Source: Candidatus Heimdallarchaeota archaeon B3_Heim (GTDB taxonomy: Archaea > Asgardarchaeota > Heimdallarchaeia > Hodarchaeales > Hodarchaeaceae). Taken from it: a DNA stretch of 32,000 nt. The notes beneath the pieces were generated by a model. It did no database searches and was not told the origin of the DNA. It worked only from the letters and a program-made list of their open reading frames with translations. Every line of letters starts with the position of its first letter. The stretch's first letter is position 1. The translations under genes were made by a program, and so were the position numbers. Below are positions 1-6,587 of this stretch, piece by piece. Location of the stretch: the NCBI GenBank assembly GCA_003144275.1, contig NJBF01000031.1:1-32000 (forward strand), written 5' to 3'.

Positions 1-39
1 AAATGAAAAGGGCAAACCCTGTGAAATGGATTTGCCCTT
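1..39 (-). terminator. Bacterial-style intrinsic terminator candidate (12-bp stem, 8-nt loop, U-rich tail)
   Basis: Minus strand reads AAGGGCAAATCC-ATTTCACA-GGGTTTGCCCTT-TTCATTT. Arms 8-19 and 28-39 pair with one G-U wobble. It lies about 200 nt downstream of the stop at 239. Confidence 0.6.
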
Positions 40-238
40 ATTGAAAAACAATATCCCAAAAATTATGAGGCCCTGATATTTGTGCCTTCATAGCAGCAAA
101 CTGTACCACCGACATCCTGAGAATGTTAATCCCATAAAAAAGACGGGGTCATTTCTGGCCCTACCCAGATTGTTCTTCGAGTATTATCTATCTTCGCTTC
201 GTCTGTCGGAATCAGCTTCCTCACGTGAAAAGTATAAT

Positions 239-1312
239 TTATGAAGCTCCGTGGCCGAGGAACTGATGATATTCATCATGTGAAAGTTTTCCGTCATCAT
301 TCAGATCGATTGCCTCAAACTTTACCTTATCGTCACCATAAATTTTCTTGAACTCTTGAAAGGTCACTTTTCCATCTTTGTCTGCATCAACAGTTCTGAA
401 ACAAATATGGCTTTTTTCTTCGTTACCAAAAACAAAGAATAGATTTCCAAATTCTTCTTTATGGATTTTTACCATTTCAGGTAATTTGGCAATAGGATGT
501 GATCCCCATAGAGAAAATCCGTAAAAATGTTTCTTCTCATTCTCTTGTAGGATTTTAAAAAGAGATGGTACTATTCTATACGATACTTTCGAGATACCTT
601 TGAAGAATGTACTTTGCACTTGTTCGACCACTTTTTTTACGATGTTGTTTTCATCAGTTAACAAGATTGTAGATTTAAACGTTAAAGCCAAACGAAAAAA
701 GTCAGCAATTTCTTGAATAGTATAGGGAGAGTATAGTATCAATGTGGGTGAAGCATTTTGTCTCTCAATAGGAGAAATTGAAAGTGATTTTTCCCCTAAG
801 CGTACTTTTATAGGTATTTTTCCGTTCTTTGTCTGATTTCCCCGTCTAACTTCTAAATATAAGTGAAAATTAGCTTTGGGATTATGAATAATATTTTTCT
901 TCCTTAATCGGTCAATAATGGCTTTCTTATGAAATGGAACGCGTCCAAAGGCCTGATAATTGACATCTACGTTAACGTTTTCCGTATGCTCAGAAATAAA
1001 ACTTTCCAAACTCGTTAATAATTGTGATAATGAATATGTTTCAAATTCAAATTGGTTTTGTAAAAAGACAACAAGGGTATTTACTCCTGGATTCTGGAGG
1101 ATTATGTCACGTACGTCTGACGCAAGGTAGGTGCTATTAAATAATTTAATTAATAATCGATATCGACTACCCCAAGTGTCATTTATAATACTGATTGATT
1201 TTGAATATTTGCGTAGAGTACGAGTTAAATCCTTTGCAATGGTTTCTTGTTCTTCATGAGTTACAAATCTAGCGAGCTTCACTAAAAGGAAAATCATCAA
1301 GGAATCGTCCAA
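239..1312 (-). CDS. THUMP-like + truncated SPOUT methyltransferase fused in frame to a two-EF-hand domain (possible chimera)
   Basis: IHNPKANFHLYLEV resembles the end of a THUMP domain. LILYSPYTIQEIADFFRLALTF and LFFVFGNEEK resemble SPOUT motifs 1 and 2. These are followed by EF-hand loops DADKDGKVTFQE and DLNDDGKLSHDE. Confidence 0.55.
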   Translation of the reverse strand: MDDSLMIFLLVKLARFVTHEEQETIAKDLTRTLRKYSKSISIINDTWGSRYRLLIKLFNSTYLASDVRDIILQNPGVNTLVVFLQNQFEFETYSLSQLLTSLESFISEHTENVNVDVNYQAFGRVPFHKKAIIDRLRKKNIIHNPKANFHLYLEVRRGNQTKNGKIPIKVRLGEKSLSISPIERQNASPTLILYSPYTIQEIADFFRLALTFKSTILLTDENNIVKKVVEQVQSTFFKGISKVSYRIVPSLFKILQENEKKHFYGFSLWGSHPIAKLPEMVKIHKEEFGNLFFVFGNEEKSHICFRTVDADKDGKVTFQEFKKIYGDDKVKFEAIDLNDDGKLSHDEYHQFLGHGAS

Positions 1313-2962: not shown

Positions 2963-4375
2963 ATGGGCACATTTAGAAATATACTACCAGATGAATTTTC
3001 AAATTTTACAATTACAGATAAGAGTTATTCATTGCTGATTAAAGGACTGCCTGGAACTGGAAAATCAAGTTTGGCACTCGAGTTAATAGCTAGATCCCCT
3101 AATGCCTTTTTCATAAGTACTCGTATTGATCCAGAAGCGATTATTGAGGATGCTAGCTGGTTAGATGAAATTTTTCCTGAAGATCGTAAATACCCTTTTT
3201 TTATGGATGCTACACGGTCAGGTAAGGTTTCCAAAAATAAATCAATTCAGAAAATGAATTTTGAGACGATCCCCGAATTCGTTCAACAGCTTTTTACATT
3301 GGGATCAGATCTTCCTCATCGGATTTTTGTTATTGATAGTTGGAATGCAGTTATTGGGAATTTATCTGAAACTCAAATACACCATTGGGAGTCAGCAATA
3401 GTTCAAAGAGTTCAGGGAAAAAATGACAAAATAATATTCGTTGTAGAAGGTATTAAAGATTCTACACTTGACTGGATGGTCGATGGACATGCAATTTTAA
3501 GTAAAAGAAGTATTGTTTCTTCCCACGGTATTTCACGGCGAATTCGTGAGTTGTCTTTTCCTAAAATGAGAGGAATTGAGATTTATAACGAAACTTATCT
3601 CACGACATTAGCTAAAGGACGAATGAAGACATTTCCACCTTTTAAATATCGATTTCCAGCCATATTATTAAAATCTAAGACAATCCCCGACTCAGATGAA
3701 CAGCATATCTCGTCTGGATCGGTCGATTTTGACAACCTCCTAGGTGGAGGATTTCAGAAAGGATCCTATAATTTATTCGAAGTATCAACAATAGTCGGTG
3801 ATGGATTAGATATTATTCTATTTCCCCTCATTACAAACCATCTGAATAATAAACGCGCATTAATAAGCATACTGCGTGAGGGAATCACGTTTGATACTAA
3901 GAAACCATATTTTGATGTCTTTACTGGAAATAAGAATTGGGTCAAACAATCGATGAATTTTGAAAGATTTGTTCCTGGAGAAGAATCTCATAGAATCACT
4001 TTACCAGAGACCATTGAAGGATTACTAAATCGGATCGAAAATATCAAGGACGATTTTCGTAAGGATAACGGACAGACAATACTTATCAATATTGGACTGG
4101 ATGTCCTTGAAAATATGTACGGAATCCCAGCGTTAAATGAATTTATGGCAATTCTCGTTTCTAAAGCAAGGTTAGAGGGTGATGTTGTAGTGGGTTGGTT
4201 GAAGGAAAATCAAGAGTATCGTGGTGGAACAACAGCGGCCACATCGCATTGGAAAATTGATTTAATTAATCGTGCATTAGTTTTAGAAGGCATAATTCCT
4301 GCAACTGAATATTTTGCAATTGAATCAGTCCTAGTAAAAGGTTATATTGATTATACAATTACTCCTGTGCTTTAA
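2963..4375 (+). CDS. GvpD/KaiC-like RecA-superfamily ATPase with two domains, the second degenerate
   Basis: Walker A LLIKGLPGTGKS, Walker B IFVIDSW and KaiC-type RRIRELSFPKMRG. The second domain opens with ISSGSVDFDNLLGGGFQKGS but lacks the GKT/S. Confidence 0.8.
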   Translation: MGTFRNILPDEFSNFTITDKSYSLLIKGLPGTGKSSLALELIARSPNAFFISTRIDPEAIIEDASWLDEIFPEDRKYPFFMDATRSGKVSKNKSIQKMNFETIPEFVQQLFTLGSDLPHRIFVIDSWNAVIGNLSETQIHHWESAIVQRVQGKNDKIIFVVEGIKDSTLDWMVDGHAILSKRSIVSSHGISRRIRELSFPKMRGIEIYNETYLTTLAKGRMKTFPPFKYRFPAILLKSKTIPDSDEQHISSGSVDFDNLLGGGFQKGSYNLFEVSTIVGDGLDIILFPLITNHLNNKRALISILREGITFDTKKPYFDVFTGNKNWVKQSMNFERFVPGEESHRITLPETIEGLLNRIENIKDDFRKDNGQTILINIGLDVLENMYGIPALNEFMAILVSKARLEGDVVVGWLKENQEYRGGTTAATSHWKIDLINRALVLEGIIPATEYFAIESVLVKGYIDYTITPVL

Positions 4376-4400: not shown

Positions 4401-6587
4401 GTGAGGAACTTGAACACTCCATCCCCACATATTAAAGAACTATCTGTAACCCTAAAAGGATGTATTGATTTATCAATCGAAAAAAAAACACAGGAAGCAA
4501 TTCATAATCTTTCTATTGATGAGAAATATCAGCTTTACTGGTTAATATCAAAGACAAAATTAGTCGATCATGACCTATTTGAAGTGGAAAATACCCTTTG
4601 GAATTCTATTAAAGGTATTTTTAATAGTGAATATTTACAAACCGTTCAGTTATTAGACCAACAGGATCGTGTATTAACCTTCGTTGAAATTGGGATATTT
4701 CTTGACTATCTGGATATTGAAGACTTCAGAAGCGTTGTTAGATACCTTTATACCCATAGTTTGGAACCAGAAATTACTATAACGAAGATTAATGGAAAAA
4801 TAGTTAATTTACTCATTTTTTTTGCATCCTCTGATGAAAATCCAATTGAAAAAACAATTTCCATGATTCGATTCATTGGAATTCCTCCTGCGGGGTTCGA
4901 TGAACTCAATCAAAAATTGTTAGCTACATTCCCGAAGCAGAAAAAGGCGCTGGAAGCCATTAATGAACTCCCGATCAGTGTATGTCAAAAATATCCAGAG
5001 TATATTCCAGAAATAGTCGAAAAGCTAGAATATGATTCAAATATTCCTATTCTAAAGCAATGGATTGATCACAACGCTTTAAATAACATCACTAAACAGA
5101 AAATAGCTCAGTTCACCAATAAATGGAATCCCCCAGATTATGAATCCAATGAAGAATTTTTTAAGAATCTATTAGTCCAACGGAAAGAAAATCAGATAGT
5201 ATCGATACCCCTTAGCCATGAAGCGTTTGTTAAGCCATTTATCAAAAAACTAAAGGCTAGTACGGTTCGTACCTCAGAATTACCTATCACGATCCCCACA
5301 GAACTTCTCCCTGGATATCTTGAAAAACTAGCTTATCCCATACTAAGCAAAGAAAAGATTATTGAGATTTTCTTTTTAGGGGGAGCACAAATTGGAACGA
5401 TGGGAATTTTAATTTCGACATCTCAGTCAAATATTTTGATAGATTATGGATTATCAGTAGCAAATTATCAAATTCCATTTTGGCATGAAGCTTTACCTAA
5501 TATTGATGCAATCTTCCTAACACATGCACATTTAGATCATTCGGGGGCTGTTCCTTTCCTGTTTAGTCAAGGTTATTCAGGGTACGTCTTTGGAAGTTCA
5601 ATGACCAAGCAATTGTCCAGTATTTTGTTATCAGATAGCCAAAAGCTTATGCAACAGAATTTCTCAACACCTGTTAATAGTTCAGATTATCGGTTCAAGA
5701 TTTTGTCACAGGAATCTAATGTTTATCAAATGTTAGAACGGTTCATTCCAATTAAATCAGGTGAAGAATATCAAATTACACCAGATATTACGATTAAACC
5801 ATTTAATGCACATCACATTCAAGGTTCATATTCGTACCAAGTTGAAAGTGGGAATAAGAAGGTTTTATTTACTGGTGATGTAAATTTTGATCCTTGTGCA
5901 TTGTTTCGTGGAAAAATGCCTAAAATACCCAAAGATTCTGATCTTTCAATTGTTGATAGTACTTATTACGGACAACCTGCGTTTGATCCCAGTGCACGAG
6001 ATAACCTTCTATTTCAAACAATAAGTGAATCAAAGAGAGTAATTATTCCTGCTTTTAGCGTAGGAAGAGCTCAAGAAATATTACTGAAACTTGAAAATGA
6101 AGGAATTACTAAAAATCATAAAGTCACCTTACTAGGAATGGCTTCAAAGGTTGCACGTTTATCTGGTCTCGTTACAAAAGCTCATTTCAGCGATCGACTT
6201 ATCCAACCCTTCGATAATGAGATAATTATTGCTGGAGGAGGTATGTTAAATGGTGGTCATGCTCGTAAGCTCGTTGAAGAAACAAAGGCTGATCCTGAAA
6301 CTTCTATTATTCTCTGTGGTTATCTTGCAAAGAATACCTTAGCATATCGCTTGCTTCACGGATTAGAGCCAAGTTACAAACAACAAATAGTTTATACACG
6401 ATTTAGTGCTCATTCGAGTAGTAACACATTGAAAAAATTTCTTTCTTCAGTGAAAGGAATGAAAGCCCTTGTCCATTTGGGTGAACTAACAAAAGATCCC
6501 TTTACACTTGCCAAGGAGAATAAACGTGGGCAACTTGGGGTGGGACCAATGCAAATTCCCCATCTTGGATCAAAAATAATAATTTAA
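4401..6587 (+). CDS. MBL-fold beta-CASP (CPSF-like) nuclease with a ~320-aa unknown N-terminal extension
   Basis: LGGAQIG, IDYG, THAHLDHSGA, NAHHIQGS, FTGD, DSTY, IPAFSVGRAQE, GGGML, GYLAKNTLA, FSAH, VHLGE. The catalytic domain starts near aa 321 (nt 5361). Confidence 0.85.
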   Translation: MRNLNTPSPHIKELSVTLKGCIDLSIEKKTQEAIHNLSIDEKYQLYWLISKTKLVDHDLFEVENTLWNSIKGIFNSEYLQTVQLLDQQDRVLTFVEIGIFLDYLDIEDFRSVVRYLYTHSLEPEITITKINGKIVNLLIFFASSDENPIEKTISMIRFIGIPPAGFDELNQKLLATFPKQKKALEAINELPISVCQKYPEYIPEIVEKLEYDSNIPILKQWIDHNALNNITKQKIAQFTNKWNPPDYESNEEFFKNLLVQRKENQIVSIPLSHEAFVKPFIKKLKASTVRTSELPITIPTELLPGYLEKLAYPILSKEKIIEIFFLGGAQIGTMGILISTSQSNILIDYGLSVANYQIPFWHEALPNIDAIFLTHAHLDHSGAVPFLFSQGYSGYVFGSSMTKQLSSILLSDSQKLMQQNFSTPVNSSDYRFKILSQESNVYQMLERFIPIKSGEEYQITPDITIKPFNAHHIQGSYSYQVESGNKKVLFTGDVNFDPCALFRGKMPKIPKDSDLSIVDSTYYGQPAFDPSARDNLLFQTISESKRVIIPAFSVGRAQEILLKLENEGITKNHKVTLLGMASKVARLSGLVTKAHFSDRLIQPFDNEIIIAGGGMLNGGHARKLVEETKADPETSIILCGYLAKNTLAYRLLHGLEPSYKQQIVYTRFSAHSSSNTLKKFLSSVKGMKALVHLGELTKDPFTLAKENKRGQLGVGPMQIPHLGSKIII

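Follow-up and report, generated by a model that had tools for sequence, protein, structure and literature searches.

RNA 2'-O-methyltransferases of the TrmH/SpoU (SPOUT) family, among them TrmL, TrmJ and YibK, resemble the intact Asgard relatives of the gene described here in possessing SPOUT motifs 1 to 3 and in the fold predicted for those relatives. They are unlike the open reading frame (ORF) as assembled, which is without motif 3 and the knot, and the Asgard family differs from them in lying barely at the threshold of the Pfam SpoU model. The predicted fold of the intact relatives also matches THUMP-domain tRNA enzymes (ThiI, Trm14/TrmN and Trm11). For the other end of the ORF, the closest counterparts are small secreted bacterial proteins with a pair of EF-hands, annotated as "Ca2+-binding EF-hand superfamily protein" and 84 aa in length. 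The tail of the ORF is 95% identical to such a protein, and 96% identical at the DNA level, with the same two canonical 12-residue loops, but its signal peptide (codons 1 to 21) has been replaced by 295 codons of an archaeal methyltransferase. Inter-genome chimeric contigs, as encountered in metagenomes and metagenome-assembled genomes (MAGs), change abruptly from one parent to the other at a short word common to both, a few hundred bases from a contig end, both parents being found separately and the displaced sequence being located at another contig end of the bin. All of these properties were observed here. The present case differs in that the word is only 19 nt long and in that the join is in frame within a conserved catalytic motif, so that the product mimics a plausible domain fusion. 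On the sequence comparisons described below, the 357-aa ORF is very probably an inter-genome assembly chimera at the end of a contig and not a fusion protein.

The fused reading frame at the contig end

The window, meaning the whole 32,000-nt stretch of DNA analysed, corresponds to positions 1 to 32000 of contig C63 (57.5 kb), and nt 1 of the window is base 1, the physical end, of this contig. The contig belongs to a Hodarchaeales (Asgard) MAG consisting of 103 contigs, with a completeness of 94% and a contamination of 3.9%. The relevant features, numbered by window position except for the last, are as follows.

239 to 1312, minus strand: fused ORF (P0001), 357 aa
413 to 1297, minus strand: 5' part of a Hodarchaeales THUMP-like plus SPOUT (TrmH/SpoU family) methyltransferase gene, codons 1 to 295; 88.7% DNA identity to positions 6001 to 6885 of L002, the syntenic locus of the nearest relative
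413 to 431, minus strand: shared 19-nt word TTTTGGTAACGAAGAAAAA, identical in both parents and encoding FGNEEK in both; site of the probable false join
239 to 431, minus strand: 3' part of a bacterial standalone 84-aa signal-peptide EF-hand gene, codons 22 to 84 plus stop; 96% DNA identity to the bacterial locus L003
1 to 412, no strand assigned: foreign (bacterial) contig tip, absent from the relative's syntenic locus and from the rest of the MAG
1 to 59, minus strand: terminator-like hairpin repeat ending the contig, with a stem from 39 to 8 followed by TTCATTT, on the sense strand of the gene
C15:26324-26389, minus strand: 3' end of the methyltransferase gene, last 22 codons; exactly the terminal 66 nt of contig C15

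In P0001, the residues LFFVFGNEEK are followed directly by SHICFRT and then by the EF-hand loops DADKDGKVTFQE and DLNDDGKLSHDE. Nucleotides 421 to 410 of the minus strand read GAAGAAAAAAGC, which places an A6 run at the junction, and 413 nt separate the junction from the physical end of C63. This ORF, its junction and its two canonical loops had been described in a sequence-only reading of the window and were confirmed from the sequence. Pfam searches detected two EF-hands in the tail with E values of 2e-12 to 2e-14, and five EF-hand models scored above their own cut-offs. Both 12-residue loops followed the canonical pattern of D/N as residues 1, 3 and 5, G as residue 6 and E as residue 12 between flanking helices. 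Matches of P0001 to the NCBIfam models for XopAW, a transaldolase and lanmodulin were all far under the cut-offs and reflect only generic EF-hand loops.

The SpoU match of P0001 was below threshold (16 bits versus a cut-off of 29.7) and ended at position 106 of the 142 in the Pfam model, which means that P0001 lacks SPOUT motif 3 together with the knot. An alignment with nine homologues likewise demonstrated that P0001 is without G-LPL...SEPLRASQAAAYALG after GNEEK. As assembled, therefore, the ORF has neither motif 3 nor a knot after motif 2 and does not qualify as a SPOUT/SpoU-TrmH protein; the missing continuation reported in the sequence-only reading is genuinely missing. Since a homopolymer run is located exactly at the junction, a frameshift or sequencing error in the A6 run might hide an intact SPOUT gene with its C-terminus in another frame. 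This explanation was rejected because both alternative frames downstream of nt 421 were stop-rich and were without G-L-P...SEPLRAS... and motif 3. DNA similarity to the nearest relative also ceases at the junction, and an error of this type is regarded as exceedingly improbable.

The archaeal and bacterial parents

A protein search with P0001 detected 40 homologues, each of which spanned only ~83% of the query. All were from Hodarchaeales or from Heimdall-type or Thor-type Asgard archaea, and almost all were 333 to 345 aa in length. Homology was tight through F-G-N-E-E-K/T, after which the relatives continue with G-LPL-VRK-I-...-IG-KASEPLRASQAAAYALG while the window diverges. The start codon of the homologues corresponds to the ATG at 1297 and not to the TTG at 1312. 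Whether relatives encode a full SPOUT domain had been put forward as a check on the ORF, and all of the homologues were found to terminate in full SPOUT motif 3, with no EF-hand being detected in any of the 40.

The nearest relative, P0002, exhibited 85% amino acid identity and is located in the syntenic locus L002, which has in common with the window a gene of the IF-2B family, a 103-aa ORF, a KaiC/GvpD-like ATPase, a beta-CASP nuclease and a CN hydrolase. From nt 1400 down to nt 413 the window matched this locus with 88.7% DNA identity, and the similarity ended abruptly at nt 413. No match to nt 1 to 412 was found in the 13-kb syntenic locus.

The bacterial parent was sought by searching with the tail peptide among one genome per prokaryotic species. 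The best match, at 95% identity, was in SAG AM-311-M20, a single-amplified genome of the Thermodesulfobacteriota, and the next best match was at most 58% identical. At the DNA level, window positions 431 to 223 were 96% identical to positions 3997 to 4205 of the SAG locus (L003). Positions 3935 to 4189 of this locus constitute a standalone 84-aa ORF with a signal-peptide-like N-terminus, containing ...ALCFGNEGKSHICFRVVDADKDG..., and the gene natively encodes ...CFGNE(E/G)KSHICFR. Its neighbours are bacterial genes encoding a PAS protein, a protein with a SET domain and the ATPase of a type II secretion system (T2SS). A search with the 84-aa ORF detected 29 relatives (P0042 to P0070; 65 to 98 aa) from many samples, with the consensus ...ALCFGNEEKSHICFR. 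The combined SPOUT-EF-hand architecture was present in none of the 40 archaeal homologues, which were found among proteins of 196 to 625 aa, and all 29 of the EF-hand relatives were standalone. The 84-aa secreted family has an invariant H-I-C-F before loop 1 and a C-terminal H-x-x-Y-H-x-x-L-G-H-G, and the additional His and Cys residues conserved in it might coordinate a second metal.

The tip had a GC content of 0.40 versus 0.33 for the adjoining archaeal gene. Its tetranucleotide likelihood fell at the 23rd percentile among same-size windows of the MAG and was uninformative. The contig ends with a repeat (nt 1 to 59) that has a fold energy of -22.4 kcal/mol (z -4.5) and was also detected in a terminator scan. 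At least 35 copies of this repeat, with 76 to 100% identity, are present in the SAG genome, including three within ~2 kb around the EF-hand gene (L003:3101-3158, 4248-4283 and 5095-5153), and it recurs on hundreds of short contigs from four sediment or marine metagenomes. No other copy was found in the MAG, and an Rfam search returned no family. The repeat is ~55 nt long, with a conserved AAGGGCAAA...TTTGCCCTT followed by a T-rich tail, and lies downstream of genes in the Thermodesulfobacteriota SAG; it resembles a terminator or a REP-like element specific to this lineage. Such an ending, in a high-copy repeat of the other organism, is consistent with a tip that was joined wrongly.

The junction word and the displaced 3' end

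When the window was aligned jointly with the archaeal relative and the SAG, it tracked the archaeal sequence as far down as nt 413, and at nt 431 and below it tracked the bacterial gene. Each side therefore corresponds at high identity to a different organism, with an abrupt break at the shared word. The FGNEEK encoded by this word is SPOUT motif 2 in the archaeon and the end of the signal peptide in the bacterium; its presence in the consensus of the standalone EF-hand relatives indicates that it is native to both parents by coincidence.

Independent samples were also compared with the window. Among the public runs searched, none contained the archaeal part, and the best-matching runs shared at most 0.17 of the words of the query. 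Logan contigs from four runs, each from a different study (one cold seep, two sediment and one marine), were aligned to nt 1 to 1400; only nt 72 to 431 were covered, with 96 to 99% identity, and the depth over nt 432 to 1400 was zero. Two of these contigs (X3 rec24 and X4 rec32) matched the window as far as nt 431 and carried a further ~40 and 152 off-window letters, respectively. The differences of the X3 contig from the window were all within nt 234 to 394, and its copy of the shared word must therefore be identical to that of the window. The occurrence in four metagenomes of the bacterial piece but not the archaeal part indicates that the EF-hand piece exists in nature without the archaeal gene. 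Searches of JGI metagenome contigs for the exact junction word and for its bacterial version produced no matches, each being weak evidence either way.

To locate the missing 3' end, the C-terminus of the relative was used as a tblastn query against the MAG. This search detected the SPOUT C-terminus DKASEPLRASQAAAYALGILNI, followed by its stop codon, with 95% identity at the very end of C15, where motif 3 is encoded. In reverse complement, the terminal 6 kb of C15 were collinear with L002:6935-12937 at 93.5% identity, and no foreign DNA was detected at the C15 end. This collinearity with the downstream genes of the relative indicates that C63 and C15 abut in the real genome, with the methyltransferase gene split between them. 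By comparison with P0002, about 48 nt, or 16 codons equivalent to residues 296 to 311, are unassembled between the two contigs. The true continuation of the archaeal gene is thus displaced but present elsewhere in the same assembly, and the gene is most likely intact in reality.

These analyses established both parents, the breakpoint with its abrupt switch, the 19-nt word and the place where the missing end lies, and showed that none of the relatives has the fusion. In the proposed explanation, C63 would represent the Hodarchaeales archaeon down to nt 413, while its final 412 nt would derive from a co-occurring Thermodesulfobacteriota-type (sulfate-reducer-type) bacterium and would comprise the 3' two-thirds of the gene for the secreted 84-aa EF-hand protein plus the downstream terminator-like repeat. 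The switch between parents would have occurred inside the shared word, with the join being in frame by chance. As to how the join arose, the hole of 48 nt points to a local gap in the coverage of the archaeal gene, and we infer either that this gap was bridged at a small k-mer, the dead end having been extended through the shared word, or that a chimeric library molecule was formed at the microhomology. Two points count against a chimera. The smallest k-mer usual in metagenome assemblers is 21, and the 19-nt word is 1 to 2 nt below this minimum; furthermore, C15 begins ~48 nt past the breakpoint and not at it.

A join that is in frame and at a microhomology is also what illegitimate recombination would give. 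A recent event of this type in an archaeal sub-population could have replaced the SPOUT knot with the bacterial EF-hand pair, the intact C15 allele co-existing. Were this the case, the ORF would encode a protein with a THUMP and half-SPOUT region and a Ca2+-binding EF-hand tail, and would represent a snapshot of an inter-domain gene fusion in an Asgard archaeon. However, the intact 3' end is present in the same MAG free of bacterial DNA, the bacterial piece matches free-living bacterial sequence with 96 to 99% identity and terminates in the bacterium's own high-copy repeat, no archaeal homologue has the fusion, and the exact junction word was not recovered from the JGI contigs. The product would, moreover, be without the SAM-binding motif 3 and the dimer helix and is hence predicted to be a dead enzyme. 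We consider recombination unlikely, and markedly so, and an assembly chimera remains the preferred explanation.

The sequence-only reading had raised the same two possibilities and had judged an artefact at least as likely as a real fusion; it is the artefact that is supported. Its proposal that a small standalone EF-hand gene had been joined in frame, as a chimera, near the contig end is supported in nearly every detail, and the microhomology that it recognized as a shared EEK/A-run extends further than supposed, to the 19 nt from 413 to 431. It had also named a near-identical standalone bacterial EF-hand gene as a finding that would refute a real fusion, and such a gene (95% protein and 96% DNA identity) exists. 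Its other proposal, of a new RNA-binding Ca2+ sensor derived from a dead methyltransferase, is not supported.

The archaeal gene and the meaning of the probable chimera

The AlphaFold model of P0002 was generated from a 34-sequence alignment and had a mean pLDDT of 87. The predicted fold matched structures of TrmL, TrmJ and YibK, with TM scores by target of 0.63 to 0.75, and also matched, in full-length alignments, the THUMP-containing tRNA enzymes PH1313/ThiI, Trm14, TrmN and aTrm11. This comparison of an intact relative's model backs the interpretation of the archaeal part as THUMP-like plus SPOUT that had been made from the window alone. P0002 just passed the Pfam SpoU threshold (30.0 versus 29.7 bits). 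When C63 and C15 are taken together, with ~16 codons unassembled between the contigs, the real gene has the three SPOUT motifs and, according to the model of the relative, the SPOUT fold. It most likely encodes an Asgard 2'-O-methyltransferase that acts on tRNA or rRNA and has an RNA-binding, THUMP-like module at its N-terminus. The family to which it belongs (relatives P0002 to P0041) has members of 333 to 345 aa and is restricted to Hodarchaeales and to Heimdall-type and Thor-type Asgard archaea. The predicted structure suggests a fusion of the N-terminal THUMP-like module to the SPOUT domain, and the family is a candidate for a new THUMP-guided 2'-O-methyltransferase.

The Ca2+-sensing dead methyltransferase is almost certainly no real feature of this locus. 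For quality control, this would mean that the deposited MAG has a bacterial tip on C63 and a false fusion ORF, and that C63 should be cut at about nt 431 and set adjoining C15. Automatic annotation would describe the ORF as a TrmH protein with EF-hands from an Asgard archaeon, a lineage in which "eukaryote-like" domain combinations draw attention.
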